A stretch of 64,000 bases of DNA, from sequence record MW394390.1. One strand, 5' to 3'. The stretch's first letter is position 1, and every line of letters starts with the position of its first letter. This DNA comes from Klebsiella phage vB_KpM_FBKp34. This document shows positions 12,568 to 64,000 of the stretch, in pieces. Under the pieces are notes generated by a model. It was given only the letters and a program-made list of their open reading frames with translations. It searched no databases and had not been told where the DNA came from. The position numbers and the translations under genes are program-made.

Positions 12568-12577
12568 TTAATAAGTA

Positions 12578-13488: not shown

Positions 13489-13666
13489 CGAACATATATA
13501 GAGTAAAGGGAGACTTAAAGCTTTCAGTTGAAAGCTTTTAGGATCACTCTCTATATTGTTCGATAATTTATAAGGTGAGATATTCTCTCATAATGTTCTC
13601 AAGCGAACAATATAGAGAGGAACTCACGACCAAAGGGAGAGTGTTACTTTACTCTATATATGTTCG
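13489..13666. promoter_or_regulatory. nested inverted repeats: 20-bp arms 13489-13508/13647-13666 and 16-bp arms 13547-13562/13604-13619 (shared CGAACAaTATAGAG core); internal AAAGCTTTC-N5-GAAAGCTTT hairpin and TGAGA-N5-TCTCA palindrome at 13576-13590
   Basis: perfect complementarity verified by eye. Confidence 0.7.
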
Positions 13667-36413: not shown

Positions 36414-36570
36414 TTTAGTTTCCTTATAGACTATAAACAACAGATTTAATATCTTGAACGTTTAACTCAGTCAAAGAGATAAAACGTTCAATAGCTAAAC
36501 AGATATTTGATGCTGAAATTCTCAATGAAGTGCCATTGAAAGCAGTAATGTTATACATAATCTTTTCTCC

Positions 36571-36858
36571 TCAGAATGCAAGTACACGTTTGATGTCTTT
36601 TGGTGCATTTTCGAACAACTCAATTACAAAGTCAAGCATTTTTATTAGATCATTCGTCACACTATACTCTTTGTAAGACCTCAAGCATGTTTTCTGTTCA
36701 CCAACTTGATGCAAAACCTTGATTGGTGCATCCAGGCGGATGTTACGGTCTTCGTCCTCCTCAAAAGAAGCTAACCACTTTTCATTGTCACCATGGACAG
36801 CAATTATGATCCCATAACCGTCAACAGTTTCTGAAATGTTTTTAGTTGCCTTTATCAT
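36571..36858 (-). CDS. hypothetical protein
   Basis: 95-aa ORF. Confidence 0.45.
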   Translation of the reverse strand: MIKATKNISETVDGYGIIIAVHGDNEKWLASFEEDEDRNIRLDAPIKVLHQVGEQKTCLRSYKEYSVTNDLIKMLDFVIELFENAPKDIKRVLAF

Positions 36859-37396
36859 TCAAGAGTTCCTCAATGTGACTAACACGATGTTCATAATAAT
36901 CCCCAAGAGAAAAGTAAGCTGCTGGGCTATGCAAAACATCCCATTCAAGCATCATCTCAATAGTTTTGTACATCTTAAGATACTTTTGCATTCTTGCAAA
37001 GTCTTTTTCTCGCAAACCTTTTAAACGACGAATATCTGTGTTGTGACGAAGATCAGCCAGCTTCACACGACACGTATCAGAAGAATACAAAATGCCTGAA
37101 AGGTACTCATTATGAGATTGACCTGCTTTCTTGGTTAAACGATTGATGCCATCCACTACCCGCTCTGAAAAACCGTAGGCAGCAAGTTCGATAAAAGTCA
37201 CATCACAATCTTCAACCAAATCATGACCGACAGCAATGCAGTTAAGTTCATCATCATCCGATTTGAGATAGTGCATAACCTTTAGTACATGCAAAATGTA
37301 AGGTCTTCCACCTTTATCAAATTGATCTTTATGGCCTTCTGCTGCTAACTTAATCATAAGGGAGAGTTGTTGTGCTGGAGTAAGTTCAAATTTCAT
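36842..37396 (-). CDS. HD-domain small alarmone hydrolase (RelA/SpoT-type (p)ppGpp hydrolase domain)
   Basis: HKDQ...RPYILHVLKV...AVGHDLVED...YGFSERVVDGINRLTK...VKLADLRHNT closely tracks SpoT/Mesh1 HD motifs. Confidence 0.7.
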   Translation of the reverse strand: MKFELTPAQQLSLMIKLAAEGHKDQFDKGGRPYILHVLKVMHYLKSDDDELNCIAVGHDLVEDCDVTFIELAAYGFSERVVDGINRLTKKAGQSHNEYLSGILYSSDTCRVKLADLRHNTDIRRLKGLREKDFARMQKYLKMYKTIEMMLEWDVLHSPAAYFSLGDYYEHRVSHIEELLNDKGN

Positions 37397-37515
37397 TTGT
37401 ATGTCCTTCTTGGTTAAGATAACTCCATCTTACTCTAAAAATATTTCATGTCAAGGGTTGACTTTCTTTTTCGGTTTGATAAGATTGTTGCATACCAAAC
37501 GAGAGGAGAAAAAAG

Positions 37516-37878
37516 ATGCCTATTTACCATGTAACTACTGAAGGTGATGATGAAGGTCGTAGCACTCGCGACCTGGGATATGTTGAAGCAAATAGCCCTG
37601 AACATGCTGTCAAATACTTGAAAAGTATTGGTATCCATGAATATTATGATTACTATGTGGACGTAGCACTGAATGTTGTTCGTAAAGCCGCCCCAGAAGA
37701 AACTCTGAATATGTGGGTAGCCGAACTATCCCTGCGGCCTTACAGCAAAGATTCTTACAAAGGTAAGGTAGTTGAAAACACAGAAGTACGTAAGCGTTGT
37801 CAACAAACTGTTCGAGAAGCAATGAAACGTGCAGGGCTTTCTTATGAAGACGTAGTTAACTTTGGTAAAGGAGAATAA
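37516..37878 (+). CDS. hypothetical protein
   Basis: 120-aa ORF; first gene of + block after TTGAC-containing divergent region. Confidence 0.45.
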   Translation: MPIYHVTTEGDDEGRSTRDLGYVEANSPEHAVKYLKSIGIHEYYDYYVDVALNVVRKAAPEETLNMWVAELSLRPYSKDSYKGKVVENTEVRKRCQQTVREAMKRAGLSYEDVVNFGKGE

Positions 37879-37880
37879 CA

Positions 37881-38252
37881 ATGTATAACCTCACCTGGAC
37901 GCAAGCCCAAGAAGCAATGCGTGAAGGTAAACGTGTAAAAAACTGTCACTTTACTGATGATGAGTGGTTTACAATGCAGGGTTGCTCTATTATAGATGAA
38001 GCTGGATATTCAATGGAAGGTTGGTATCGTGGTGAGCCTTGGCAAGATGTTGGTTGGACAGTTATTGCTGATGAAATAGCAGAACTTACAAAAGATGTAG
38101 AGTTTGTTCTGGACTTTACTAATCTTGAAAAGTATACTCTTAAAAGTATGATAGCTACAACAACTAAAGATAGATCTGATAGTGACTATGCCACTACAAA
38201 AATCTATAAAGGTAAAGGTCATAACAAGCTCCAGAAGAGGAAGAAGAAATGA
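37881..38252 (+). CDS. DUF2829-like phage protein
   Basis: N-terminal W-x-QAQEAMREGKRVKN pattern resembling DUF2829; weak. Confidence 0.35.
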   Translation: MYNLTWTQAQEAMREGKRVKNCHFTDDEWFTMQGCSIIDEAGYSMEGWYRGEPWQDVGWTVIADEIAELTKDVEFVLDFTNLEKYTLKSMIATTTKDRSDSDYATTKIYKGKGHNKLQKRKKK

Positions 38253-47482: not shown

Positions 47483-47890
47483 ATGATTATTGAAAAAATG
47501 AAACAAGACCAACTTGCTTTTCGTAAATCCGGTGATAAAGAAAAGGCTGCTACTCTAACCTTTCTTTTAGGAAAATTGTCACAAGATAAAAATTCAACTG
47601 ACGAAGATGCTATTGCCTTAATTAAGTCTACTGTAAAATCTACTCGTGCAAGTCTTGAAGGTCATGAAGCACAACTGAAACAGTATGAAGAAGAAATTGC
47701 TTTTATGGAAAGTTATCTTCCTGCACAGTTGAGTGAAGAAGAGATTCGTGATTTCTTGGATACTGCGGTACAGAATGGTGATAAAATCACTATGAGTTTC
47801 ATGGGTAAAATTAACATGGTTGCTAAAGCTGCTGGTAAAACAGTAGACAACCAATTAGCAAAAACTATTCTTCAAGCTTATCTGATTTAA
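47483..47890 (+). CDS. GatB/YqeY domain protein
   Basis: ESYLPAQLSEEEIRDFL ... KAAGKTVDNQLAKTIL pattern. Confidence 0.7.
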   Translation: MIIEKMKQDQLAFRKSGDKEKAATLTFLLGKLSQDKNSTDEDAIALIKSTVKSTRASLEGHEAQLKQYEEEIAFMESYLPAQLSEEEIRDFLDTAVQNGDKITMSFMGKINMVAKAAGKTVDNQLAKTILQAYLI

Positions 47891-52288: not shown

Positions 52289-52703
52289 TACTGATTATAG
52301 TAAGATGAGTGATCTGGAAATAAACATCAATGTGGCTGAATTACTGCATCCTGGTAAAAAATTTACCGCAGCGTATTCATTCTTCCAGCCAGAAGGTCCG
52401 GCTGTTCAGTGGATTTGTGGTTACGCTGAGTATATTAAGGCAGATTACTGCAATAACCCAGAAGATGCATGGCCTGTAATTACAAAATATAAAATAAATA
52501 TAGAATTTCACCAGTGGAAAAATGACATAACAAAACCATATTCATTAAGCAATAAGACTGGGTTATCTGCTTATAGTGATAATCCGCTTCGTGCAGCAAT
52601 GATTGTCTTTCTGAAAATGCAGGATAGTAAAAATGTTTCTGAAAGAATGTTAAACAATTTAGAAAACACTTTAAAGACAGAAAATTTTGATACTTATGAA
52701 TGA
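52272..52703 (+). CDS. hypothetical protein
   Basis: 143-aa ORF. Confidence 0.45.
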   Translation: MKLMNNTDYSKMSDLEININVAELLHPGKKFTAAYSFFQPEGPAVQWICGYAEYIKADYCNNPEDAWPVITKYKINIEFHQWKNDITKPYSLSNKTGLSAYSDNPLRAAMIVFLKMQDSKNVSERMLNNLENTLKTENFDTYE

Positions 52704-52929
52704 GGTAAATATGATCCATTATACAAATCAAAAACGTGTTATTAAACTTCCACGATTGGCTTATCACCTTCTCTTGGAAAAAGTTTGTGAGAATGTCACA
52801 ACTTGGGTTGTTACTCAAAAAGAGCCAGCATACAAAGGCGATACCCGGTCATTTGAGTTCATGGGTGTTATCTACGTTGAGGAAGATGAGAGTTCCATGA
52901 ATGGTAACTCAGGGTGGCTTAACCCATGA
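52687..52929 (+). CDS. hypothetical protein
   Basis: 80-aa ORF. Confidence 0.4.
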   Translation: MILMNEVNMIHYTNQKRVIKLPRLAYHLLLEKVCENVTTWVVTQKEPAYKGDTRSFEFMGVIYVEEDESSMNGNSGWLNP

Positions 52930-53258
52930 ATAAGGTAAGCTTTTGTTATACTTTGTTAGATAAAATACATAAGATAGTGGAATCTCATTACGAGAACGAT
53001 TGGGATTTAGATGTCTTAAAAATTTGTCTATCCATAGAGGATTGGTATGAACTGATCCGCGATGAGAACTCACTGATATATCTGAATAAATTTACTGGTT
53101 ATAATAACTTAAAGTTTTCAAACTTTAAATTGGAAATTTATTCAACTATTAAGAAGTCATATATTCTTGTAGACAGATATCGGGTATGTGAGTTTCTTAA
53201 TGTGGAAATGACCAGCGATGAATTTAATCTGTGGGGTGAACATAAGATTGAACTATAG
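52926..53258 (+). CDS. hypothetical protein
   Basis: 110-aa ORF. Confidence 0.45.
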   Translation: MNKVSFCYTLLDKIHKIVESHYENDWDLDVLKICLSIEDWYELIRDENSLIYLNKFTGYNNLKFSNFKLEIYSTIKKSYILVDRYRVCEFLNVEMTSDEFNLWGEHKIEL

Positions 53259-53266
53259 GTGACAAC

Positions 53267-53458
53267 ATGTTTATATGTCTTTGTAATAAAATTAATGACA
53301 AAATGCTACAAAAAGTTATAAAAGATTTTTCTTGTAAGTCATTGGAAGATGTGCAAAGATATATACCAGTCGCCACTTGTTGTGGTAAATGTAAACAAAC
53401 GATAGTTGAGGTGTTAAATGAAAATAATGATAGCTCTTTGTCTGATCCTGTTTTGTAG
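53267..53458 (+). CDS. Bfd-like [2Fe-2S]-binding domain protein
   Basis: MFICLCNKINDKMLQKVI ... ATCCGKCKQTIVEVL (CxC ... CxxC). Confidence 0.55.
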   Translation: MFICLCNKINDKMLQKVIKDFSCKSLEDVQRYIPVATCCGKCKQTIVEVLNENNDSSLSDPVL

Positions 53459-53624
53459 TTTGACAATGGCTGAAGATAGCGTTACAGTTAAACGAGTGTA
53501 CAACGGCTACACTGCTGTTAACAAGATTTACATCATGAAGGACGATATTAATGGAAAATTCTGTTATATTGTGTATAATGATGCAGGTAGTAACGCAATG
53601 TACTGTTTTGATAAGCAAAAATAA
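53418..53624 (+). CDS. small secreted protein (signal peptide)
   Basis: MKIMIALCLILFCSLTMA then hydrophilic domain. Confidence 0.4.
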   Translation: MKIMIALCLILFCSLTMAEDSVTVKRVYNGYTAVNKIYIMKDDINGKFCYIVYNDAGSNAMYCFDKQK

Positions 53625-53652
53625 TTTATTTTAAACTGAGGAGAGTAAAATA

Positions 53653-54630
53653 GTGACACATCATTTTGGGTTCCCCCTTCTGGATATTGCAGTTCTTGTT
53701 GGAGTTCTTGCACTATCAATCCTTGTAGATTTCTTTGGACACAAGGAAAATAAAGAGATCGGTATTAAGTCTGCATTGGCTTGGTCTGCATTTTGGATCG
53801 CATTAGCATTTGCATACTATGGTTTTATTTGGGTAGAGTATGGCAAAGAATTTGCCTCTTTGTTTCTGAGTGGGTATGTGCTAGAAAAATCATTGTCTGT
53901 GGATAACTTGATGGTGTTCATGGCAATCTTCGCTAGCTTCGGGATCAAATCGACACACTTACAGCATAAGATTCTTCTTTGGGGTATTGCTGGTGCCATT
54001 GTATTTCGAGGTATCTTTGTGGCAGCAGGTACGGCAATCTTTAATTTACACTGGTTTTTCCAAGTGCTGTTCGGTCTGATTGTAGCATGGTCTGCACTGG
54101 CTATTATCAAAGGCGGCGATGATGAGGAAGATGAAGTTGATTACTCTAAACACTGGGCGACTCGTCTGGTTGGTAAGATTCTTCCTGTTCATCCGGCTCT
54201 AGATGGCGAGAAATTTATCACCATTAAGAATGGGATCAAGTATGCAACTCCGGCTTTGTTGTGTGTCTTTGTAGTGGAGTTTACTGATGTAATTTTCTCC
54301 TTTGACTCTGTCCCGGCTGTAATTGGTGTGACGCAAGAACCTCTGCTGGTTTACTCTGCAATGTTATTTGCAATTCTTGGTCTCCGTGCACTGTTCTTTG
54401 TACTGAGTGTAGCAGTTAAATACTTGGTTCATCTGGAAAAAGCCGTTGCTGTAGTTCTAGTGTTTGTAGGTGCTAAACTGATTTACCATCCTTTTGGTGA
54501 GACACTAAATGCAAAATGGTCTTTCCTGCCACATGATATCTCAGCAAACGTAAGTCTTTGTATTGTACTTGGAACGCTGGCCTTGGGTATTATTGCAAGT
54601 CTGGTTTTTCCTGAGAAAAAAGAAGCTTGA
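53653..54630 (+). CDS. TerC family integral membrane protein (GTG start)
   Basis: multi-TM, YVLEKSLSVDNLMVF signature, second repeat VVEFTDVIFSFDSVPAV. Confidence 0.75.
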   Translation: MTHHFGFPLLDIAVLVGVLALSILVDFFGHKENKEIGIKSALAWSAFWIALAFAYYGFIWVEYGKEFASLFLSGYVLEKSLSVDNLMVFMAIFASFGIKSTHLQHKILLWGIAGAIVFRGIFVAAGTAIFNLHWFFQVLFGLIVAWSALAIIKGGDDEEDEVDYSKHWATRLVGKILPVHPALDGEKFITIKNGIKYATPALLCVFVVEFTDVIFSFDSVPAVIGVTQEPLLVYSAMLFAILGLRALFFVLSVAVKYLVHLEKAVAVVLVFVGAKLIYHPFGETLNAKWSFLPHDISANVSLCIVLGTLALGIIASLVFPEKKEA

Positions 54631-54634
54631 GAAT

Positions 54635-54657
54635 AGCCCCGAAAGGGGCTTTAGTTT
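54635..54657 (+). terminator. rho-independent terminator AGCCCC-GAAA-GGGGCT + TTAGTTT
   Basis: seen. Confidence 0.6.
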
Positions 54658-54674
54658 AAAGAGGAAACTTTAAC

Positions 54675-55037
54675 ATGAATGATATTTTTGATGAAATGGA
54701 AGAATATGCTTGGGCTTTGGGTGATAATGTAAATGCAATGGCTTTACTCCAAGAAAGATACCCACAAACAAACATTCAGATCTTAGAAGTTTCCGATCTA
54801 ATTCTTCCTAAAGGTGTTGTAGCTTGTTGTGGTACGGGCGCAGGGGAAGTAACACCTGTAAAACGTTTAGAAATGGCTTTTGGCTCCAGTTTAAATGGTG
54901 AAATGGAAAATGCTACCTTTGTCCAATTCTGGACTTCACCAAATGCTAAATTATTTGACAACACAACTTGGGAACTTTTCTTCTGGGATCAGGTGAAGGA
55001 TCGAGAGGTACAGTTTGAAGTTCCTGTTGTAGAATAA
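54675..55037 (+). CDS. hypothetical protein
   Basis: 120-aa ORF. Confidence 0.45.
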   Translation: MNDIFDEMEEYAWALGDNVNAMALLQERYPQTNIQILEVSDLILPKGVVACCGTGAGEVTPVKRLEMAFGSSLNGEMENATFVQFWTSPNAKLFDNTTWELFFWDQVKDREVQFEVPVVE

Positions 55038-55146
55038 TGTTGACTTTTGCTAAGACAAGCTTTATAGTTTGTCTTGTTGAAAGAAACAAACCAGTAAGGA
55101 GTAAAAATGTTTGCTGAAGAAGATATTCATTCAGAGATAGAATGGC

Positions 55147-55353
55147 TTGAATTTATTACAGAAAATTGGGAAGGTTAAAATGTTTGATTTGACTTATCAG
55201 TTTGACCCTGAGAGAGTATGTCTATGCCCAATTTGTGATCAACCAATGTTTACTTACGAAGCAGTAACAACTATCGTAGTCGATGATTGTCAATGTATGG
55301 CACACAATTTTTGTGCAATCAATTTCGACGAGGAAGAAGACGATGAAGATTGA
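55147..55353 (+). CDS. Cys-rich small protein with acidic tail
   Basis: CLCPICDQ ... CQCMAHNFC ... EEEDDED. Confidence 0.4.
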   Translation: MNLLQKIGKVKMFDLTYQFDPERVCLCPICDQPMFTYEAVTTIVVDDCQCMAHNFCAINFDEEEDDED

Positions 55354-55528
55354 GATCATTCACTCAGCAGGAACACCTTTTGAGGAAGGTAAACAATATG
55401 ACTTGGTCTACGATAGATATCTTCGTACCTATATGATCCAAGAGTGGGAACATGGTGAGTTATTGGAAACGTGGCTCAATGATTTGATTCATGATGCAGT
55501 TGAGTTTAAAATTATTAAGGAGAGTTAA
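55343..55528 (+). CDS. hypothetical protein
   Basis: ATGA overlap with upstream stop. Confidence 0.4.
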   Translation: MKIEIIHSAGTPFEEGKQYDLVYDRYLRTYMIQEWEHGELLETWLNDLIHDAVEFKIIKES

Positions 55529-55732
55529 ATGCCCAACATGAGCTATTGCCAATTTAGAAATACAGAAGGTGATTTTCGTCAATGTCTTGATGCAATTGGC
55601 AACGCAGAGTCAATTGAAGATTTTTCACAAAGTGAGCAAAACTCTGCGGAAAATTTATATGAAATGGCGAAAGATTATGTCAATTGGTATGAACAATTAT
55701 TAGATCAAGAGGTTGAAGATGAAGATTGTTGA
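55529..55732 (+). CDS. hypothetical acidic protein
   Basis: 67-aa ORF. Confidence 0.45.
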   Translation: MPNMSYCQFRNTEGDFRQCLDAIGNAESIEDFSQSEQNSAENLYEMAKDYVNWYEQLLDQEVEDEDC

Positions 55733-55976
55733 ACAATATGTTTTTGAAGTTGGGGATGTCTTTACAGGTAAAGGTGATGGTTGTTGGTTAGTGCCAAATC
55801 AACGAAGACTCCTTTCAGCACCAGATCACTATCTTTTTGTAAAAGAAGTTGGGATCAATGCAGTTTATCTTTGTGGTGTAGGGTATGCTTATAATTTTTC
55901 ACCAGAAGAGTTGACAGACCATATTAAAAAAGATAATCTCATTTATCTTGGTAATGTTTACAAAGGTAAAAACTAA
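55713..55976 (+). CDS. hypothetical protein
   Basis: 87-aa ORF. Confidence 0.45.
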   Translation: MKMKIVEQYVFEVGDVFTGKGDGCWLVPNQRRLLSAPDHYLFVKEVGINAVYLCGVGYAYNFSPEELTDHIKKDNLIYLGNVYKGKN

Positions 55977-56308
55977 TGAAAATTTTAATTATCTATGAAA
56001 ATATTCCAGAAACAACAGATCTTTTTGTTCTTGAAACTTCTGATTCTGAAGAGATCAAAAATCTGAGCGTCATTCATGGACACTATATTAATGCAGAAGA
56101 GAATGAAAAAATTCTTGACAATTGTACACGGTGGTACTATAAGCTATACGGTGAGACTACTTGGGCTGACAAGGAAGAGTATAGTAAATATGGTGTGCAG
56201 GATAGTGAAGTAGGAAAATATCTTAAAAATAAGATTGACTATCAAGATATCTTAGATGTAAAATCTTTAGATATTGATTATGTAGTTGTAACAGGATTTA
56301 TTTGTTAA
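55976..56308 (+). CDS. hypothetical protein
   Basis: 110-aa ORF. Confidence 0.45.
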   Translation: MKILIIYENIPETTDLFVLETSDSEEIKNLSVIHGHYINAEENEKILDNCTRWYYKLYGETTWADKEEYSKYGVQDSEVGKYLKNKIDYQDILDVKSLDIDYVVVTGFIC

Positions 56309-56328
56309 TTTAGAGGAGAAACACTAAT

Positions 56329-57042
56329 ATGAGTAATAAACTATCACTTGAGAAACGTACTGAGACTGTAAAACTGTCCCTGGAAAAAGCTGGTGTTCAA
56401 CGCAAGGATATTTGTCTCCGTGTAGCGCTTGCACTGGATAAAAGTGGATCAGCAGAAGATTTCTATCGTAATGGTCAATTTGAAGAGTTGGTTGATCGAC
56501 TCCTACCAGTCTCTGCAAATATGGATGATGACGGTACTATTGACACTTGGCTATTCCATACTCGCTCAATGGAGGTTGAACCTGCAACACCTAAAAACTA
56601 TGGCGGATACATCTCTAACGTCATCATGAAGGGTAAATATAAAAACGAGTGGGGTGGTACTAATTATGCTCCAGTGATGAAAGACATTCATCATCATTAC
56701 TTTGGAAAAGAAGAGAAGAAAGGTCTGTTTGGTTTTGGTAAAGCCAAAACTGTCCCTGTAACAGATTCAGATATTCCCGCACTTGTTTTCTTTATTACCG
56801 ATGGTTCTAATAGTGATCGGGTTGAGACTTTGCGACTACTTGACAGTATCAAAGATGAGCCTGTATATTGGATGACAGTAGGTGTTGGTCCAGATAGCTA
56901 CTTCACTTTCCTTCGTGAGATTGCTGAACGTTATGATAATGTAGGATTTGTTAATTTTAACAATCTAAATATTAGTGATGAGCAAATGTATAATGCAATC
57001 ATTGATGGTGAACTTGCAGCATGGATTAATAAGGTCTCCTAA
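56329..57042 (+). CDS. vWA domain protein (TerY-like)
   Basis: MIDAS-like LALDKSGS; FFITDGSNSD; agaggag RBS. Confidence 0.6.
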   Translation: MSNKLSLEKRTETVKLSLEKAGVQRKDICLRVALALDKSGSAEDFYRNGQFEELVDRLLPVSANMDDDGTIDTWLFHTRSMEVEPATPKNYGGYISNVIMKGKYKNEWGGTNYAPVMKDIHHHYFGKEEKKGLFGFGKAKTVPVTDSDIPALVFFITDGSNSDRVETLRLLDSIKDEPVYWMTVGVGPDSYFTFLREIAERYDNVGFVNFNNLNISDEQMYNAIIDGELAAWINKVS

Positions 57043-57109
57043 AAGAGTTGACTTTAAATTTTACTTTGAATATAATATTTAAACTGAATAACTAAGAGAG
57101 GAAATAAAT

Positions 57110-57691
57110 ATGTCACTTAATCTGGAAAAAGGTTCTTCATTGCCAATGGTTAAAGAAGATGGCAAAACTCCACTAAAACGAGTTCGTGTAGAGTTATCCT
57201 GGAATCCTAATACCAATTCATCTTCACATGATTTTGATCTGGATGTTCTTGGCGCAGTCTGTAAGAATGAAAATCTGCAAGCTGTATCAGTTAGTGAAGT
57301 TGCATACTGGGGGCAAAAACAGACTAAAGCAATTAACGTCTCCCCTGATAATCAAACTGGTATTGGTGATGGTGTTGATGAGTTCCTGGATATTAATCTT
57401 GAAAATGTGTCTTCAGACGGAGATCGTATTCCAGTTTTGGTTTATATCTACAATGCACGACCACGAAATCAGAGTTTTGCTCAGGTAGATGGTGCTAGTG
57501 TTGTTCTTCGTGACCTTGACTCAGGTAAAACTATTGGTTCTTGTAATATCTCTGAGAAAGGTTCTTCTATAGATGAGTCGCTTCTTGTTGGTGTATTTGA
57601 GAAACAAGCAGATGGAACTTTTATTTACAACCAAGTGAATGAGTTTTATGATAAGAGTTTTCAAGAATGGGTAGGTGTTTTTACTAACTAA
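57110..57691 (+). CDS. TerD domain protein
   Basis: LEKGSSL...VRVELSWNP...HDFDLDVLG...PDNQTGIGDGVDE...QSFAQVDGASVVLRD matches TerD core. Confidence 0.85.
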   Translation: MSLNLEKGSSLPMVKEDGKTPLKRVRVELSWNPNTNSSSHDFDLDVLGAVCKNENLQAVSVSEVAYWGQKQTKAINVSPDNQTGIGDGVDEFLDINLENVSSDGDRIPVLVYIYNARPRNQSFAQVDGASVVLRDLDSGKTIGSCNISEKGSSIDESLLVGVFEKQADGTFIYNQVNEFYDKSFQEWVGVFTN

Positions 57692-57752
57692 TTAGTTAAA
57701 GGCACTATTGGAGATAGTGCCACTTTTAATCTCGAAAACAGGAGAAAATATT

Positions 57753-58334
57753 ATGGTTTTAAGTCTGGATAAAGGTTCTAAGCTGTCACTAGATAAATTT
57801 CAAGCATCTGATCTGAAAGTATTGCGTGTTGAAATGACTTGGGACGCACCAGAGAAAACGAGTTCTTTCTTTAAGAGCTATGATTATGATCTTGATGTAA
57901 TTGCAGTTATTGTAGACAAAGATAATAAGGCTGTGGATGGCTCTAAACACTTTTGTTTCTTCAACCAACAGGAAACTCCAGCAATCAAAAGTTCTGGAGA
58001 TGATTTAAATGGGGAGGATGGCGGTGAATCTCTCCTGATTACCCTGGATAAAGTTCCTGAAAAAGGTAAACATATTCCAATTATTGTTGACCTTCATAAG
58101 GCTAAGGAACGTAAACAGAACCTTTCTCAAATGAAAGATGGTACGGTTCGTATTCTTAATCATGAAACAGACGAACTTCTTGCAGAAATTAAGATGAATA
58201 CTTTCTCAAGTAATGATACATCTATCTTGTTTGTGGTTGTTAATCGCACGGATACGGGTTTTGAAGTAGAGAACGTTAGTACAGCATACCCTAAGAGTAT
58301 TGTTGACTGGATTGAACTTTACCAAGTACAATAA
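57753..58334 (+). CDS. TerD domain protein (second paralog)
   Basis: MVLSLDKGSKLSL...VEMTWDA...YDYDLDVIA...; aggag RBS; track ORF starts 45 nt earlier. Confidence 0.8.
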   Translation: MVLSLDKGSKLSLDKFQASDLKVLRVEMTWDAPEKTSSFFKSYDYDLDVIAVIVDKDNKAVDGSKHFCFFNQQETPAIKSSGDDLNGEDGGESLLITLDKVPEKGKHIPIIVDLHKAKERKQNLSQMKDGTVRILNHETDELLAEIKMNTFSSNDTSILFVVVNRTDTGFEVENVSTAYPKSIVDWIELYQVQ

Positions 58335-58351
58335 GATCATTTTAAACTGTT

Positions 58352-58377
58352 AGGTGGGCCGATGCCCACCTTTTATT
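58352..58377 (+). terminator. rho-independent terminator GGTGGGC-CGAT-GCCCACC + TTTTATT
   Basis: seen; track ORF 58354 begins inside this hairpin. Confidence 0.6.
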
Positions 58378-58392
58378 AGGAAGGAGATTAAA

Positions 58393-59271
58393 ATGAGTGC
58401 AGACTATAAAAACCTTTTCAATAAACAAAAAGATTATTCTAATCTGTTCTCTGACAGTCAAAAACAAACTAAACAGGAATCAAACATGTCATATAAAAAT
58501 ATATTTGGCAATTCGGTATCTGTTCCCGAAGTTACTAAAATAAAATCAGTTTTCCCTGAAAAACAAATTGATGCACGAGTAAAAGATATTCAAACTATAG
58601 ATGCTAAAATTAGTACCCATGCTGTGATAAGCTGGATAGATAATTTTGATAATAACTTCAAGAAACTCACTACCATCAACCAGGAAGTTTCTCAATGTGA
58701 GTTAGATTTAGCAATGGAATTTACTAGTGGCAGACTTCAAGTACAAACCCTCTTCAATGATATAAAACAGGCTGTTTCCAAGTTAAAGGGACCGCAAAAG
58801 AAGCCTGGGCTACTATCACGTATTTTAGGTTCTAATGAGGAGTTTAAGTTAACTCAGGAAATTATTACCGAAGTTATCCAAGAGATTAAATTAAACTTGG
58901 AACAATTTAAGAACAAGGCCAAATATAACACTAGCATGTTTTTAAAATCAGAAATGAGGGCTATAGAAGCTAAAATTTTGGATTTAAAAAGTGACCTGGA
59001 GTGTGCTATTGTTGCTGCAACTTACATGATAAATAGTGATGATTTTAAGGGAACTGTTAGATTAGAGAAATTAAAACAAGTAAGTGGTTTAACAAATATT
59101 TCAGAATTGCAATTAAAAAATACTTACCAACTTCTTGAGAAAGATCTTGAAGCATACGAGAACTTAAAAAACATGACAATTCCATTTTTGTATGCTAAGA
59201 TCCAAACCTTAATGAGTAGCACTTTAGATTCTGAAGCGCTTAACGTGATTAATGATATTGATAAACTTTGA
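58393..59271 (+). CDS. TelA/KlaA-like toxic-anion-resistance family protein (paralog 1)
   Basis: MSADYKNLFNKQ N-terminus paralogous to next gene; long helical/coiled-coil body; assignment inferred. Confidence 0.4.
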   Translation: MSADYKNLFNKQKDYSNLFSDSQKQTKQESNMSYKNIFGNSVSVPEVTKIKSVFPEKQIDARVKDIQTIDAKISTHAVISWIDNFDNNFKKLTTINQEVSQCELDLAMEFTSGRLQVQTLFNDIKQAVSKLKGPQKKPGLLSRILGSNEEFKLTQEIITEVIQEIKLNLEQFKNKAKYNTSMFLKSEMRAIEAKILDLKSDLECAIVAATYMINSDDFKGTVRLEKLKQVSGLTNISELQLKNTYQLLEKDLEAYENLKNMTIPFLYAKIQTLMSSTLDSEALNVINDIDKL

Positions 59272-59281
59272 GGATTAAATT

Positions 59282-60358
59282 ATGTCATATGGTAATCTAT
59301 TCAATAAAACACAAGCTGCTGAAAATGTTGCAAACAAAAACTCTACAACATTTACTCAACCTGTAAAATCTTTACCTATTTTAAAAGATGCAGAAGGCAA
59401 TACTTATGCAATGGAATTGAGTGAAATTCAAAATTTTGGTATTGTTAAAAATTCAAAACAATCTGAAATTAATAATCAAATCTTATCTAAAACTCTTGTT
59501 GCAGATAGTGGTGTAATGGCACAAGGCTTTACTCAAATTATGGCTCTATCTGAAAAAGTAGATATTGGTTCTTTAACTGATGGCAAAGTTGGTTTCTTAA
59601 AAAGTTTACGTAATAAGTTTATTGATCGTAAAGCTGAAGTGAAAGCTCAATTTACTACTGTGCGTAAACAAATTACAGATGTCGCAGCTAACCTTAAGAC
59701 GAAACTTATTGAAATGGAAGAAGAAGGTAAGTGGTTAGAATCTATGTATAAGGCAAACCTTGAAGAAGTTCGTATGTGGGAGCAAAATAAAATTCTTGTT
59801 AATGATGCACTTGAACAAGCTGAGAGTTACCTACAAAACTTAATTAATACAGATGCCTCCGTAGATCAAATCGAAGAAACTCGAATGAAAGTTAATGCAC
59901 TAAGTAAACAAGCAGATAAAGTAAATAAAATGCACCAACTGAGTGCTATTGCTGCACCAGAGATACGTATGATGCAAGTTACCAACTTCAATAATGTGAA
60001 TAAGTTCAATGATATTCTTGAGTTAACAATCCCATACTGGGAAAAGAAAATGTCCCTGGCATTAAACGCAGAAAATCAGCGACAACAAATTGCTCAAGCA
60101 AAAGTTATGGATGATTTTACTAACAACTTAATTCAAGAAACCGCTAAACAGGTAGGACAAAATATGGTAGATTCGGCTAAAGCAAATCAAAGAGGGATTG
60201 CTGATGTAGATATTATGGTAGAAGCTACTAATGTCATTATCAATTCTATAAAAGAAGTTGTAGAGATTGATAAGAATGGTAATAATGTACGTAAAGAAAA
60301 TGCCAAAAAGATTGAAAAATCTTTGGTAGATATGCAGGATGCATTACGTAGTGTATAA
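59282..60358 (+). CDS. TelA/KlaA-like toxic-anion-resistance family protein (paralog 2)
   Basis: MSYGNLFNK...; helical 358-aa protein with the size and composition typical of TelA; inferred. Confidence 0.45.
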   Translation: MSYGNLFNKTQAAENVANKNSTTFTQPVKSLPILKDAEGNTYAMELSEIQNFGIVKNSKQSEINNQILSKTLVADSGVMAQGFTQIMALSEKVDIGSLTDGKVGFLKSLRNKFIDRKAEVKAQFTTVRKQITDVAANLKTKLIEMEEEGKWLESMYKANLEEVRMWEQNKILVNDALEQAESYLQNLINTDASVDQIEETRMKVNALSKQADKVNKMHQLSAIAAPEIRMMQVTNFNNVNKFNDILELTIPYWEKKMSLALNAENQRQQIAQAKVMDDFTNNLIQETAKQVGQNMVDSAKANQRGIADVDIMVEATNVIINSIKEVVEIDKNGNNVRKENAKKIEKSLVDMQDALRSV

Positions 60359-60374
60359 AATTTTATGTTGACTA

Positions 60375-60406
60375 AAAGGGGCTAATTGCCCCTTTACTAT
60401 TTTTAA
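60375..60406 (+). terminator. rho-independent terminator AAAGGGGC-TAAT-GCCCCTTT + T-run
   Basis: seen. Confidence 0.6.
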
Positions 60407-60422
60407 AATATAAGGAGGACTT

Positions 60423-60932
60423 TTGCTAAAGAAACTGCCAATGATTTTGTTGACAGCGATACTAGCGCTTCAGAACGCTGCTGCGAGCACTTCAAGTAAA
60501 GATAAGCCATTACATACCTGTACTAAGAAAGATTCAACCACGCTCGTTTTGGCGTGCTCTATGTATGCTGAGGCACGTGGAGACGGTGAAAAAGGTATGT
60601 TGATGGTAGGTAATGTAATTTTAAACAGGAAAAATCATGAAGATTACCCCTCTAAAATCAAAAAAGTAGTTTATCAGAAGAATCAATTTTCATACTTAAC
60701 AGGAAGTCCTGTAAGAATTTATGAAAAAGACACCTGGAATAAAGCTAAAAACTTAGCTAAATTTTTGATTTTATTAGAGAATGAAGATCCTTCTCTGAGG
60801 GTATTGCACGACCGAACTAAAGGTGCTATCTTTTATGTCAAGAGAGGTACAAGAGTAGCTTGGTTAAAATCAATGAAAAAGGTTGCAAGCTATAAAGACC
60901 ATGATTTCTATGTTCCAAAATCAGATACATAA
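60423..60932 (+). CDS. SleB-family cell wall hydrolase with signal peptide (TTG start)
   Basis: signal peptide; ACSMYAEARGDG...VGNVILNR...PSKIKKVVYQKNQFS. Confidence 0.65.
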   Translation: MLKKLPMILLTAILALQNAAASTSSKDKPLHTCTKKDSTTLVLACSMYAEARGDGEKGMLMVGNVILNRKNHEDYPSKIKKVVYQKNQFSYLTGSPVRIYEKDTWNKAKNLAKFLILLENEDPSLRVLHDRTKGAIFYVKRGTRVAWLKSMKKVASYKDHDFYVPKSDT

Positions 60933-60944
60933 TGGAGATTAAAA

Positions 60945-61196
60945 ATGGCTGGTTATCACATTAAAGAAATTGAAAAACGTCGTTATGGATCATTAGGTAA
61001 GATTCAGGAGGAAGTAGAAGAACTTCTAGATGCACATCAACAAGGTAGCTACATTATGATGTTGGTAGAACTCTCTGATTTATACGGTGCTATTGAAGGT
61101 TTCATGGAAGAAAACTTTCCTGACATGAAGATTGCAGATCTTAAAAAGTTCTCAGATATCACAAAACGTGCGTTTAAAGAAGGTCATCGATCATGA
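60945..61196 (+). CDS. MazG/HisE-like all-alpha nucleotide pyrophosphohydrolase
   Basis: EEVEELLDA...LVELSDLYGAIEGF two-helix EExxE / E..D pattern; weak. Confidence 0.35.
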   Translation: MAGYHIKEIEKRRYGSLGKIQEEVEELLDAHQQGSYIMMLVELSDLYGAIEGFMEENFPDMKIADLKKFSDITKRAFKEGHRS

Positions 61197-61783
61197 ACAT
61201 AAATCTTGACTTGATCCAAAAAGCTATTGATTGGTATAGCACAGATTGTGTTTTATCAAGCGTACCATACTTAGTGGACCAAGATATTATGAAGTGGACT
61301 TGTCCACCTGGTGTTGTAGATCGTAGAATGACACACTACAATGATAAACAATACGTTGCCAGTGCAGAACAATCTTTCCTTCAGCTAGAGAAAGATGGAG
61401 AGATAACAGATGGGATTAAACCGCTTATTGCATTGACGCCTTGTTATAGAGACGAACCAATTCTTGATGAGACTCATTTTAACATCTTTTTAAAATTAGA
61501 AATTTTTGATTATAACCCTAAAGGTCCAGTAGATTATTCAGTTTTCTGGGCTAAAAGAATGTCTCTATTTTTCCTAGAGTTTGATCTAAAAACAGACATC
61601 ATTCAAACAGATATTGGTTATGATGTGATGTACGGAGACTTAGAGTTAGGAAGTTTTGGAGAAAGAATCTCACCAAAAGGTATCCCTTACGTGTATGGTA
61701 CAGGTCTTGCAGAACCCAGGGCATCTTTAGCATTACAAAGAAATTCTAAAAAGTTGTTGCTTTCTGACTCAAGTGTGTCATAA
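61193..61783 (+). CDS. class II aminoacyl-tRNA synthetase-like catalytic core fragment
   Basis: LTPCYRDEP...ETHFNIFLKLEIF (motif-2-like) and GTGLAEPRASLAL (motif-3-like); inferred. Confidence 0.35.
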   Translation: MNINLDLIQKAIDWYSTDCVLSSVPYLVDQDIMKWTCPPGVVDRRMTHYNDKQYVASAEQSFLQLEKDGEITDGIKPLIALTPCYRDEPILDETHFNIFLKLEIFDYNPKGPVDYSVFWAKRMSLFFLEFDLKTDIIQTDIGYDVMYGDLELGSFGERISPKGIPYVYGTGLAEPRASLALQRNSKKLLLSDSSVS

Positions 61784-61814
61784 TTAGCTCATCAAAACAT
61801 GAGAGGGCTTATTA

Positions 61815-62117
61815 ATGAAACGTACATTAGGTTTTCAAGCAGAAGATTTGATTTTCAAAAGTGAAGAATTCAATATCTTTAATGAGTTCACTACTGAAAT
61901 CTCTGCTACAAAGATATTTGAATACGCCAATGAGATTAAGAATAACTGTTCAGAAGATCAGTATGCGATAGCTTGGGCTTGTGCACTTAAAGGTGCTAGG
62001 GCTGGTCTTGATAATTGGGAAGAGGATGGTGCTCTAGGTGGTATTGAGGATTATATGGATGATGGAATCATAGCCGAACTCTATGACTTTTTCTTTACCT
62101 GTAATGGAGCAGCTTAA
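61815..62117 (+). CDS. hypothetical protein
   Basis: 100-aa ORF. Confidence 0.4.
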   Translation: MKRTLGFQAEDLIFKSEEFNIFNEFTTEISATKIFEYANEIKNNCSEDQYAIAWACALKGARAGLDNWEEDGALGGIEDYMDDGIIAELYDFFFTCNGAA

Positions 62118-62119
62118 TA

Positions 62120-62395
62120 ATGAAATTATCAGATGCACAAATCTACACTTTACGTAGAATGAATTCTGGTACAAGATACTTCATGAGAGGTGATGGTCTC
62201 AAAGGTGAAGAAGATCGAAGTGTAAGATACTCCGTAGACAGGGTAAACTGTAAATCAATCCCTGTGCTCTATGAAAAAGGTCTAGTAGAATTTTGTAGTG
62301 ATTGTTTGAAACTTAAATCTAGTTGGTATAGTATAAGACTTTCATTACTAGGCAAAGAAATCTTACAAGATCTTAAAACATCTGGAGAAAAATAA
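62120..62395 (+). CDS. hypothetical protein
   Basis: 91-aa ORF. Confidence 0.4.
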   Translation: MKLSDAQIYTLRRMNSGTRYFMRGDGLKGEEDRSVRYSVDRVNCKSIPVLYEKGLVEFCSDCLKLKSSWYSIRLSLLGKEILQDLKTSGEK

Positions 62396-63045
62396 TGATT
62401 AAGCATATCTCTTTTGACGTATGGAATACTTTGATCACTGCAAATCCTTTATATAGTGAAATTCGTACTAAAATAATTGCAAAGTATGCAAATGTAACTG
62501 ATCGTGAAGCAGGTACAATGTATCGGAAAGTAAAGAAATATTTAGACCAAAACGCAGAAAAAGGTATTTGTAGTTTTACCTCGACTGCTTGGTATGTTTT
62601 AGGTAAAAATTTAAACATGGAACCAAAAGCAATTACTCAAATGCAACGCGAATGTGAAGAAGCTTTTCTTGCATTCTCACCACGTTTAAATGAAGATTTA
62701 GTTGACCAATTAATAAGCCTTGATGACAAGTATGAACTGAGTATTAAAAGCAATACTAACTTTATTTCAGGAAGGATCTTGTCTGAAGCTGTAGGCTTTG
62801 ATAGAATGCCATGGTGTAGTTTTATGCATTTCTCGGATGAACATCTGCTTTGTAAACCAGACATTTTATTCTTTGCTAAAACTCTGCTTTCTAGTAAGCT
62901 GTCTAACCTAGCAAACTACGAAATTTTGCACATTGGGGATAGTGAAGTTTTTGATGGAAAATGTGTTGACTTAGGATTTAAGTTCTGCCATATTAAAAAC
63001 CCTGAAGACCTTTTAAACAAACTCATTAATGGAGAAGTAATCTAA
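62395..63045 (+). CDS. HAD superfamily hydrolase (dehalogenase-like subfamily)
   Basis: motif I ISFDVWNTLI, motif II LSIKSNTN, motif IV HIGDSEVFDG. Confidence 0.55.
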   Translation: MIKHISFDVWNTLITANPLYSEIRTKIIAKYANVTDREAGTMYRKVKKYLDQNAEKGICSFTSTAWYVLGKNLNMEPKAITQMQRECEEAFLAFSPRLNEDLVDQLISLDDKYELSIKSNTNFISGRILSEAVGFDRMPWCSFMHFSDEHLLCKPDILFFAKTLLSSKLSNLANYEILHIGDSEVFDGKCVDLGFKFCHIKNPEDLLNKLINGEVI

Positions 63046-63869
63046 TGCGTAATGAAACTCAATTCTTTACTCACGCTTTTTCTGAACTGAAATCTGCACC
63101 ATTTTCACCTGAGAAATATTCTCGTTTGAAGTTTGGTAGTGATAAAGTAGCTAAAGAATTTGGTTATGATCTTGCAGACTCATTCTTCAAGCATTATGGT
63201 GATGATTTTATTGAACACAAAGGTGTAGTTATTCCATCACCTTATAATCAAGTTAAGAATGCTGCAACAATCATGTCTGAACATTTCATGGATCGTATGA
63301 ATGACCTGTTGGTTTCTCATGGTGGTTCAAATCTCGAATGGTCCGTCATTAATCGTAAAGTTTCTTATATTAACGACTATGGTTTCCTCGATAAAGAGAA
63401 GCGTAAAGCTTTGATTGATGGAGATGTGTTCCATTTGAACAAAGGTTTTCTTGAAGGTAAGAAACTCATTTTTATCGACGACGTCAATATCACTGGGACG
63501 CATGAAGACAAACTGATTGAAATCTTGGATCATAATGAAATTAAAAATGATGCATATTTCCTGTACTATGCTAAGTACACAAAAGGTGCAGTAGATGCTA
63601 ATATTGAAGCAGCATTGAACTTTGCCGGGATCCGTGATGCACGAGATTATGTTGCATTGACAGCAGAAAAGAACCACCATCTGATTGTGCGTCCTATTAA
63701 GTTTCTGATGAGCCGGGATCCTGCGGAATTTGAAAAAGTTATTAAAGACCTTGACATTGAGTTCATCCAGAAATTATACTATGGTTGCTTAAGTGAAGGT
63801 TATCATAAGATTAAAGAATATCAGATTAACTTTAAATTTCTGATGTGGTATCTTGGTAAAAATAAATAA
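63045..63869 (+). CDS. phosphoribosyltransferase (PRTase) domain protein
   Basis: PRPP-binding loop KLIFIDDVNITGTHED. Confidence 0.7.
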   Translation: MRNETQFFTHAFSELKSAPFSPEKYSRLKFGSDKVAKEFGYDLADSFFKHYGDDFIEHKGVVIPSPYNQVKNAATIMSEHFMDRMNDLLVSHGGSNLEWSVINRKVSYINDYGFLDKEKRKALIDGDVFHLNKGFLEGKKLIFIDDVNITGTHEDKLIEILDHNEIKNDAYFLYYAKYTKGAVDANIEAALNFAGIRDARDYVALTAEKNHHLIVRPIKFLMSRDPAEFEKVIKDLDIEFIQKLYYGCLSEGYHKIKEYQINFKFLMWYLGKNK

Positions 63870-63878
63870 GGAGTCATT

Positions 63879-64000
63879 GTGAAATCATTAATTATCTCTC
63901 TGAAACAAATCCTGTCAGAATCAAAAGAAGAATTATCTACGGTAGGATTGCAACTGGCAAGTCTGGGAATGTTCATGGATTCTCTAAACTATGTTTACAA
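63879..64000 (+). CDS. hypothetical protein, 3'-partial (GTG start)
   Basis: aaggag RBS; runs off window. Confidence 0.3.
   Translation, partial: MKSLIISLKQILSESKEELSTVGLQLASLGMFMDSLNYVY

Follow-up and report, generated by a model that had tools for sequence, protein, structure and literature searches.

Downstream of the Ter genes of Klebsiella phage vB_KpM_FBKp34, four enzyme genes follow one another on one strand, and we asked whether they encode a single Ter-attached pathway. The window, by which we mean the whole 64,000-nucleotide stretch of record MW394390.1 that was analysed, carries the following features in this region:

53653–54630, plus strand: TerC-family membrane protein (Pfam TerC, 5e-41)
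56329–57042, plus strand: vWA-TerF-like protein (Pfam PF10138, 2.6e-38; 79% identical to its counterpart in contig L072)
57110–57691, plus strand: TerD domain protein 1 (Pfam TerD, 4.6e-25)
57753–58334, plus strand: TerD domain protein 2 (Pfam TerD, 1e-31)
58393–59271, plus strand: helical TelA-partner protein, always paired upstream of TelA
59282–60358, plus strand: TelA, toxic anion resistance family (Pfam TelA, 1e-34)
60375–60395, plus strand: terminator-like hairpin with a T-rich tail, separating TelA from the block that follows (consensus scan, pattern match only)
60423–60932, plus strand: SleB/Hydrolase_2-type cell-wall hydrolase (Pfam PF07486, 3.9e-19; PHROG endolysin, 1.6e-20)
60945–61196, plus strand: MazG/HisE-like all-alpha NTP pyrophosphohydrolase candidate, 83 aa (phrog_6408, 1.2e-41); module A, part 1
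61193–61783, plus strand: minimal class II aaRS catalytic core, SerRS-like, 196 aa, without tRNA-binding domain; module A, part 2
61815–62117, plus strand: accessory ORF, 100 aa (no Pfam match)
62120–62395, plus strand: accessory ORF, 91 aa (phrog_26489)
62395–63045, plus strand: HAD-fold hydrolase of a Ter-linked subfamily, 216 aa (phrog_14393, 1.7e-86); module B, part 1
63045–63869, plus strand: PRTase_3, a ComF-like type I phosphoribosyltransferase, 274 aa (Pfam PF15610, 1.5e-52); module B, part 2

A preliminary description had treated the four enzymes as one biosynthetic cassette directly downstream of TerD and TelA. All four open reading frames are present and the Ter genes do lie upstream, but the hairpin and the SleB-like gene intervene after TelA, and what looked like a four-enzyme cassette is two separate conserved phage gene pairs that stand side by side at the MW394390.1 locus. 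We consider it probable that 60945–63869 is a composite of two independent modules, and one pathway shared by all four enzymes is not the best reading. Folds, motifs, gene linkage, fusions and distributions form the basis of this reading, and from them we infer chemical steps, substrates and a biological role. Module A, the MazG/HisE-like protein and the mini SerRS-like core, does not appear to be part of the Ter-linked pathway. Module B, the HAD protein and PRTase_3, would be the conserved, predicted metabolite-making dyad of Ter systems, and together with TerC, vWA-TerF, the two TerD proteins, the TelA-partner protein and TelA (53653–60358) it is predicted to constitute a complete phage-borne Ter system.

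The Ter genes of the window have close counterparts in other phages. TerC is 91–95% identical to the TerC proteins of two Klebsiella-type relatives (L074 and L078), and the second TerD gene likely starts at the ATG at 57753 rather than at the mechanically listed TTG at 57708, as judged from the KP13-16 annotation (582 bp). The TelA-partner protein holds the same position in XaC1 and L072 and has no Pfam match; it is collinear with TelA at 25% identity and may be a divergent TelA paralogue, a relationship not demonstrable at the E value of only 0.12. The SleB-like hydrolase carries a signal-like segment at its N-terminus and belongs to neither enzyme pair. Homologues of the 100-aa ORF are limited to Klebsiella and Cronobacter myoviruses, a distribution unrelated to either module, and those of the 91-aa ORF occur in unrelated 40–95 kb phages. 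As homologues of these two small ORFs (61815–62395) sit in unrelated phages, both were set aside as pathway members. A PADLOC scan of ten locus proteins gave no defence-system match and nothing better than E 0.008, an Rfam scan of 52500–64000 at E values up to 1 gave no riboswitch or other RNA family, and no tRNA gene was found anywhere in the window.

The PRTase_3 protein contains KLIFIDDVNITGTHED and matches PF15610 over profile positions 5–264 of 264 (179 bits against a cut-off of 28.7); no standard PRTase model in Pfam or NCBIfam matched it. Its PRPP loop, DDVNITGT, is intact, with D145, D146, T150, G151 and T152 invariant among 23 homologues. In the structure model (pLDDT 90.8) the core matches HGPRT, ComF and PyrR, and the likeness to HGPRT and ComF is one of core fold only (Foldseek TM about 0.37, none higher). 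PDB profile matches were at E 0.29 or weaker. An ordinary salvage or orotate PRTase, as several GenBank records have it, was rejected on the exclusive match to PF15610, these PDB profile values and the TM scores, and the earlier view of a Ter-associated enzyme distinct from ordinary salvage enzymes was thus borne out. Literature searches on PF15610 returned no functional study.

The HAD protein reached only E 0.016 against Pfam Hydrolase, under the cut-off, but was assigned by phrog_14393 ('hydrolase') and by NCBIfam HAD-IA models (1e-6), and motifs I–IV are recognisable in the alignment. Motifs II (S-N-T), III (K-P) and IV (H-I/V-G-D-x(3-4)-D) are conserved and agree with the S/T, K and GDxxxD of canonical HAD phosphatases. 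Motif I, in contrast, reads F-D-V-W-N-T-L, with Trp in place of the Asp+2 general acid/base of the canonical DxDx(T/V). This D-x-W occurs in 24 of 25 phage sequences and in all 16 sequences of a mixed phage and bacterial set. The absence of Asp+2 weakens a simple nucleotide-to-nucleoside phosphatase step; in the accessible literature we found no mention of the missing residue in Ter systems.

HAD and PRTase_3 form a tight pair. The HAD gene lies immediately upstream of PRTase_3 in 16/16 viral (IMG/VR) and 20/21 bacterial loci, and a 1-nt overlap joins the pair in the window. Ter genes were found within 10 kb of the dyad in 10 of the 16 viral loci, and 5 of the 21 bacterial loci, from three phyla, are linked to TerD, TerC, vWA-TerF or TelA, so that the earlier proposal of a Ter-linked biosynthetic dyad stands. 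The dyad lies inside Ter clusters of phages, Bacteroidota and Actinomycetota, including Ter operons of Tannerella (TerD x3-vWA x2-TerY-PP2C-kinase-HAD-PRTase_3) and Pedococcus (TerC-vWA_TerF-TerD-TerD-HAD-PRTase_3 x2). In phi92-type contigs, TerD, TelA and vWA genes lie downstream of TerC, as found by blastp with TerD1; an apparent near-absence of TerD in Stephanstirmvirinae (tblastn with TerD2, E 1e-5) was discarded as a product of low sensitivity, since the TerD1-based search does find TerD. Contig L072, whose Ter proteins are 67–81% identical to those of the window, has a contiguous TerC-vWA-TerD-TerD-partner-TelA-HAD-PRTase_3 array in which the TelA stop (9293) and the HAD start (9314) have nothing between them. 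In the phage lineage of the window, genome rearrangement has probably separated TelA from the dyad by bringing in module A, the SleB-like hydrolase and the two accessory ORFs.

A Ter 'biosynthetic arm' of PRTase and HAD was predicted by Anantharaman, Iyer & Aravind in 2012, as summarised in citing papers, and Iyer et al. 2021 (PMC7824862) described, in silico, phage versions that include both enzymes. As more than 150 sequenced phages carry the arm and that paper had already described it, its presence in a phage is not the novelty that was first supposed. The dyad of the window resembles the arm in its PF15610 protein, in HAD-PRTase gene order, in linkage to TerC, TerD, vWA-TerF and TelA, and in its predicted PRPP-dependent nucleoside- or nucleotide-like product. 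It differs in being a minimal two-enzyme version, with no ATP-grasp or other extra enzyme beside the dyad in the loci examined, in being cut off from TelA by an unrelated 2-kb block, and in its HAD protein, which is without the Asp+2 residue expected of a phosphatase.

Turning to module A, the 83-aa protein has an EExxE...ExxD signature in which E22, E23, E26, E42 and D45 are invariant among 29 sequences. In this metal-binding signature, EExxE(12-28)ExxD, and in its small helical size it is like phage MazG-like and other all-alpha NTP pyrophosphohydrolases, whereas its family falls below Pfam thresholds and is specifically coupled to the mini-aaRS. Against PRA-PH the protein scored 15.5 bits, under the cut-off of 21.3 (family members, 0.0012–0.09), and the best PDB profile matches of the family are weak (HisE, E 0.25; MazG-like SSO3215, E 0.59). 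Single-sequence PDB searches with the 83-aa and 196-aa proteins gave no useful match, and profiles were needed. The MazG/HisE assignment is plausible from the sequence signature, if statistically weak: the evidence is compatible with the earlier claim, and the family and PDB matches are sub-threshold or weak (E 0.25–0.6). The MazG-like domain comprises 836 representative clusters and is fused also to Nuc_deoxyri_tr2, radical SAM and HD-like domains.

The 196-aa protein has the class II aaRS fold and motifs 1–3, as the preliminary description had proposed. Its invariant residues R86, F99, E103, E151, S154, T170 and R176 align with TPCFRSE, FDKVE, EISSCS and GSGLAVGR of E. coli SerRS, and it shares with this class IIa enzyme the catalytic fold and the SerRS-type ATP- and serine-site residues. 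In contrast to SerRS, it begins at a position equivalent to about residue 186 of the E. coli enzyme, and its structure model has no N-terminal coiled-coil domain for the long variable arm of tRNA-Ser. The motif-2 loop is also shorter by ~6 residues, the hairpin ahead of the E-x-x-S motif is deleted, and a MazG-like domain is its partner or fusion part. Identity to amino acid:[carrier protein] ligases, which are SerRS-like aaRS homologues (for example Bll0957, PDB 3mey), is about 10%; the mini-aaRS differs from them in having an NTP-pyrophosphohydrolase-like partner and no adjacent carrier-protein gene. The mini-SerRS/MazG-like pair is currently mislabelled 'histidyl/seryl-tRNA synthetase'.

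The two parts of module A travel together. Phage records number 268 for the MazG-like protein and 264 for the mini-aaRS, with matching taxon counts, which places the module in about 265 phage genomes. The MazG-like gene abuts or is fused to the mini-aaRS gene in 29 of 31 viral loci, and where the genes are separate the stop codon of one usually overlaps the start codon of the next. Among the 150 best cluster representatives, 8 are fusions in the order aaRS-MazG, and such fusions also occur in a Microcystis phage and contig L040. Across 29 dereplicated locus groups no third conserved neighbour was found, a carrier-protein gene included, and literature searches on the pair returned no functional study.

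Could the two modules nonetheless serve one pathway attached to Ter? In such a scheme PRTase_3 would make a ribonucleotide-like compound, the MazG/HisE-like protein would trim pyrophosphate as HisE does on phosphoribosyl-ATP, the aaRS-like protein would ligate an amino acid to the product or act HisZ-like on the PRTase, and HAD would dephosphorylate the product. The genes from SleB to PRTase_3 do form a tight same-strand array without a predicted terminator in 60423–63869 (consensus scan); with this packing, modules A and B are probably co-transcribed here. Both pairs were also found in all Stephanstirmvirinae and Brevundimonas phages sampled, and co-occurrence, non-adjacent, in Stephanstirmvirinae and Dolichocephalovirinae, which are unrelated to each other, counts against the two-module reading. 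However, 28 of 31 viral module A loci are without HAD or PRTase_3 within 10 kb, which speaks against the aaRS-like and MazG-like proteins as members of the Ter-linked pathway. The three exceptions are all phi92-type Stephanstirmvirinae, in which the pairs stand 5–6 kb apart; in Brevundimonas phage Kabachok they are ~120 kb apart. Conversely, module B is without module A in 13/16 viral and 21/21 bacterial loci, and module A was not found at any of these 21 bacterial loci. Module A alone is carried by Acinetobacter, Cronobacter, Pectobacterium and Erwinia phages, and module B alone by Rhizobium phages. Fusions of the aaRS are with the MazG-like domain only, no recognisable HAD or PRTase domain was seen in the MazG-like representatives checked, and the uninterrupted TelA-HAD-PRTase_3 order of L072 also argues against a joint pathway. 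The locus formally resembles HisG/HisZ/HisE in bringing together a PRTase, a protein of class II aaRS type and one like HisE, and structural or profile comparisons do detect HisZ and HisE as neighbours. HisZ has lost the aaRS catalytic residues. The mini-aaRS, in contrast, keeps every one of them and scores higher against SerRS than against HisZ, and the PRTase is of type I and ComF-like, not HisG. On these catalytic-residue grounds and on distribution, with the aaRS/MazG pair occurring independently of PRTase_3 (uncoupled in 28/31 loci), the analogy was rejected. One pathway of all four enzymes is, in sum, very unlikely.

For each module taken alone, a further reading has to be weighed. HAD and PRTase_3 might be a Ter-independent nucleotide/cofactor salvage or counter-defence pair, for example one that rebuilds a nucleotide from a base freed by host immune nucleosidases or NADases, with Ter proximity being historical and not functional. 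Six of the 16 viral loci and the rhizobial loci have no Ter gene within 10 kb, which indicates that the dyad may work without Ter proteins; Rhizobium phage RHph_TM61 has an NMN adenylyltransferase/Nudix gene, DHFR and PurA next to the pair, and PRTase_3 is unusually conserved, at 50–60% identity across phages of very different hosts. Yet the dyad is embedded in Ter operons of three bacterial phyla and many phages, the genomes of the Rhizobium phages and XaC1, in which the dyad is remote from Ter genes, do encode TerD at another place, likeness to known salvage PRTases is limited to the core fold, and a phosphatase-type partner would undo the salvage product; we regard this reading as unlikely. 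Module A, for its part, might be a tRNA-centred repair or protection device against host toxins that hit tRNA acceptor ends, in which the mini-SerRS (re-)charges tRNA 3' ends, perhaps aided by a tRNA-binding protein that acts in trans, and the MazG-like enzyme removes inhibitory pyrophosphate or nucleotide. Some recurrent neighbours fit this idea: CR9 has a CCA-adding enzyme and another nucleotidyltransferase, L038 has PolyA_pol+HD and RlaP, L040 has Archease beside the fused aaRS-MazG, phi92 has a YqeY-like protein immediately downstream, and in CcrSC the pair sits within a cluster of 16 tRNA genes. This reading is nevertheless rather doubtful: a CCA-adding-type neighbour occurs in only 4 of 29 locus groups and only 5 of 41 loci have tRNA genes within 10 kb, other contexts are of a nucleotide-metabolic kind (a Providencia phage with DHFR and thymidylate synthase, Acj61 with nrdC), the other fusions of the MazG-like domain point away from tRNA, and the mini-aaRS has neither the SerRS tRNA-binding arm nor a full-length motif-2 loop.

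The two-module reading suggests a course of events for each pair. PRTase_3 would move phosphoribose from PRPP onto a base-like acceptor, and HAD would then process the product, the usual assumption being that it takes off the 5'-phosphate. The nucleoside-like compound so formed may act with the membrane-associated TerD/TelA/TerC proteins during infection, possibly in superinfection exclusion or in envelope and ion-stress control. Module A is probably an autonomous two-component enzyme common in large phages. Its aaRS core would most likely form the adenylate of serine or of a similar small amino acid and hand the aminoacyl group on to an acceptor, without the canonical arm by which SerRS recognises tRNA, while the MazG-like partner would hydrolyse a nucleoside-triphosphate-type substrate in the same process. 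We propose, tentatively, an uncharacterised, tRNA-arm-less, aminoacyl-adenylate-forming enzyme that makes, edits or destroys an aminoacylated nucleotide, or acts on the tRNA 3' end, in phage metabolism or counter-defence. As a less likely extension of this proposal, module A may in this lineage have been recruited beside the Ter dyad, such that the Ter metabolite becomes aminoacylated.

Ter systems occur widely among pathogens and phages alike, and in the accessible literature we found no identification of their small-molecule product, predicted more than ten years ago. Splitting off the mini-SerRS/MazG-like module keeps a wrong pathway out of annotation and draws attention to a phage enzyme pair, fused or operonic, that is very common and that would, if the proposal holds, represent a novel activity in phage metabolism or counter-defence. 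The near-invariant D-x-W of the HAD protein means that its assumed 'phosphatase' step needs re-examination. Overall, the phage Ter versions of L072 and of this window (TerC-vWA-TerD-TerD-TelA-HAD-PRTase_3) would reduce the predicted biosynthetic arm to a minimum of two enzymes, the form easiest to reconstitute.

A MazG/HisE-like protein, a class II aminoacyl-tRNA synthetase (aaRS)-like core, a HAD protein and a phosphoribosyltransferase (PRTase) are encoded downstream of the tellurite-resistance-like (Ter) genes, and the preliminary description had read them as a single four-enzyme biosynthetic cassette joined to Ter.

Genes of the Ter locus and of the region downstream
53653-54630, plus strand, TerC
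between TerC and the vWA-TerF-like gene, plus strand, several small ORFs
56329-57042, plus strand, vWA-TerF-like
57110-57691, plus strand, first TerD (TerD1)
57753-58334, plus strand, second TerD (TerD2)
58393-59271, plus strand, helical protein (TelA partner)
59282-60358, plus strand, TelA
60423-60932, plus strand, SleB/Hydrolase_2 cell-wall hydrolase
60945-61196, plus strand, 83-aa ORF (MazG-like)
61193-61783, plus strand, 196-aa ORF (mini-SerRS)
61815-62117 and 62120-62395, plus strand, two small ORFs
62395-63045, plus strand, HAD
63045-63869, plus strand, PRTase

Positions 60400-64000 are 98.5% identical to Klebsiella phage KP13-16 (Stephanstirmvirinae), in which all nine matching genes are annotated 'hypothetical'. 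For TerD2 and the TelA partner, the longest-ORF starts (TTG 57708 and GTG 58354) are probably incorrect; on the KP13-16 annotation and the hairpin position, ATG 57753 and ATG 58393 are preferred. An annotated 1251-bp gene separates TerC from the vWA gene in KP13-16 (locus L001, 5447-6697) where the window has only small ORFs of 68-110 aa (55100-56300), indicating an indel or replacement between phages otherwise 98-99% identical. The GC skew reverses sign twice, near 12-14 kb (window 12000-14000) and near 37-38 kb (window 36000-38000), consistent with coding-strand switches between large gene blocks.

The vWA-TerD-TerD-partner-TelA cassette (56329-60358) shares 54-76% identity with that of XaC1, a 349-kb Xanthomonas jumbo phage (L030, 9118-14726), and 67-81% with the IMG/VR contig L072 (4988-9293). 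Compared with the Klebsiella-type relatives L074 and L078, TerC is 91-95% and HAD 59-68% identical. Given these differing identities, the Ter locus looks mosaic, with the cassette apparently traded between distant phages. Terminator-like GC hairpins lie directly 3' of TerC (54635-54650), TerD1 (57701-57721), TerD2 (58352-58371) and TelA (60375-60395), and eleven terminator-like sites were counted in 11 kb versus 4.6 +/- 1.9 in shuffles, suggesting that the Ter genes are transcribed in a punctuated or attenuated manner. The SleB/Hydrolase_2 hydrolase has a signal-peptide-like N-terminus and recurs within a few kb of the Ter cluster in the related phage contigs L072 (12205-12678) and L078 (12516-12998), at 42-44% identity; it may serve as an endolysin or as a Ter accessory.

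The sequence features ascribed to the four enzymes proved real. The PRTase is a clear member of PF15610 ('PRTase_3, ComF-like'; E 1.5e-52) and carries the PRPP loop quoted in the preliminary description, and the HAD protein, weak in Pfam, matches PHROGs strongly (1.7e-86), with HAD motifs visible in the alignment. An ordinary salvage enzyme was ruled out for the PRTase, which matched no other family: its profile found nothing in the PDB better than E 0.29, and its model (pLDDT 90.8) resembles HGPRT, ComF and PyrR in the type I core alone (TM no higher than about 0.37) and has an additional C-terminal helical region.

The HAD-PRTase_3 pair belongs to Ter systems. A tblastn search located the PRTase in 156 phage genomes, and the match almost always coincides with or neighbours a 'hydrolase/HAD' entry. 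Scanning bacteria at one genome per species recovered 21 PRTase_3 loci; HAD is immediately upstream of PRTase_3 in 20 of these, and in Bacteroidota, one Peribacteria MAG and the actinobacterium Pedococcus the dyad has TerD, TerC or vWA genes beside it. The gene order is TerD x3-vWA x2-TerY-PP2C-kinase-HAD-PRTase_3-P-type ATPase in Tannerella and TerC/DUF475-vWA_TerF-TerD-TerD-HAD-PRTase_3-PRTase_3 in Pedococcus. Among the IMG/VR loci, HAD abuts PRTase_3 in 16 of 16, and Ter genes are within 10 kb of PRTase_3 in ten. The 153-kb contig L072 reads TerC-163aa-vWA-TerD-TerD-partner-TelA-HAD-PRTase_3, TelA and HAD lying just 20 nt apart, and phi92-type phages have HAD-PRTase_3-phosphatase-TerC-...-TelA-vWA-TerD. 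Such linkage fits the 'biosynthetic arm' that Anantharaman et al. 2012 proposed for Ter, according to summaries in later papers. Already in 2021, Ter genes had been noted in a related Klebsiella phage, and Iyer et al. 2021 (PMC7824862) explicitly reported that Ter systems of phages can include PRTase and HAD enzymes, suggesting a role against superinfecting phages. The proposed tie of the PRTase/HAD arm to Ter is thus upheld, whereas its novelty in a phage is not: the arm here adds one more example to a system that computational work had already described for phages. In the Brevundimonas jumbo phage Kikimora (L006, 1-1120), a full-length seryl-tRNA synthetase is encoded ~7 kb upstream of HAD-PRTase_3; the Brevundimonas phages sampled also have the mini-SerRS module, seen directly in the Kikimora relative Kabachok.

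In HAD phosphatases, the leaving group is protonated by Asp+2, a residue that dehalogenase-type and P-type ATPase members of the superfamily lack. Motif I of the Ter-linked HAD is D-x-W-x-T (F-D-V-W-N-T-L in the window), Trp replacing this general acid/base in 24 of 25 phage sequences and in all 16 of a mixed set, while motifs II-IV are intact in the alignment. The observation covers the window (62395-63045) and loci L002, L005-L008, L010-L029 and L072-L087; we found no mention of the Asp+2 loss in the accessible literature. The replacement makes the 5'-phosphatase step assumed for HAD uncertain and suggests that the Ter-linked HAD is not a standard phosphatase. The PRTase would join PRPP and an acceptor into a nucleotide-like product, which HAD would then process into a putative ligand or effector for the TerD/TelA/TerC apparatus.

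The other two proteins did show the expected likeness to aaRS and, more weakly, to MazG enzymes. In the 196-aa protein, each of the three class II motifs is invariant, and so are R86, F99, E103, E151, S154, T170 and R176, which correspond to the ATP- and serine-binding residues of Thermus thermophilus SerRS-seryl-adenylate structures; it has no tRNA-binding N-terminal arm. The 83-aa protein carries an invariant EExxE...ExxD, the signature of all-alpha NTP pyrophosphohydrolases, with only weak family-model and PDB matches. Phage genomes encoding the MazG-like protein number 268 and those encoding mini-SerRS 264, and the two tallies match from taxon to taxon (Escherichia 113/112, Acinetobacter 59/61, Pectobacterium 10/10, Cronobacter 8/8, Brevundimonas 7/7). 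Their genes sit side by side, the stop codon of one usually overlapping the start codon of the next, in phi92 (gp197/gp196), CR9 and phages of Providencia, Pseudoalteromonas, Brevundimonas and Caulobacter. A MazG-like domain gene is present in 29 of 31 IMG/VR mini-aaRS loci, nearly always abutting the aaRS. Among the best 150 of 836 MazG-like representatives (E 1e-3 or better), eight join a full-length mini-aaRS at the N-terminus to the MazG-like domain at the C-terminus. Since the operon has the opposite order, read-through between neighbouring genes does not account for the fusions. Microcystis phage and L040 proteins also join the two domains.

Obligate pairing and fusion argue for a single process. 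The aaRS core would form seryl-AMP or a similar adenylate and, with the tRNA arm missing, hand the aminoacyl group to a putative acceptor, and the MazG-like partner would hydrolyse an NTP-like pyrophosphate bond. Across 29 dereplicated locus groups, no third conserved gene was found around the pair, and the context clues conflict: tRNA/RNA-repair neighbours (CCA-adding enzyme, RlaP, Archease, a YqeY-like protein, a tRNA cluster) versus nucleotide-metabolism neighbours (DHFR/thymidylate synthase, nrdC). Loci adjoining Archease, RlaP and CCA-adding-enzyme genes include L040 (254-2122), L038 (2147-7606) and L004 (2990-8582). Other MazG-like relatives (P0256, P0306, P0379, P0380, P0389) are fused to radical-SAM-like, nucleoside 2-deoxyribosyltransferase-like (Nuc_deoxyri_tr2) or weak HD-like domains, which points to nucleotide-directed chemistry. 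The phi92 YqeY-like gene gp195 is directly downstream of mini-SerRS; its weak match in the window (47486-47749, E 3e-4) is ~14 kb from mini-SerRS.

The MazG-like/mini-SerRS pair is a module separate from HAD-PRTase_3. Only three of the 31 IMG/VR mini-aaRS loci have HAD/PRTase_3 within 10 kb, all of them Stephanstirmvirinae with a spacing of 5-6 kb downstream; the remaining 28 have none within that distance. About 120 kb separate the two pairs in Brevundimonas phage Kabachok, and the MazG-like/mini-SerRS pair was not found in the 21 bacterial dyad loci examined. The two ORFs between the pairs here (61815-62395) have homologues only in unrelated phages, and a terminator-like hairpin follows TelA. 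With distributions this independent, the adjacency is best explained by rearrangement in a lineage where both modules happen to be present, so that the proposed aaRS-containing Ter variant gives way to a juxtaposition. Two concrete leads come out of the region: the HAD with its D-x-W motif, and the enzyme in which mini-SerRS and MazG are fused.
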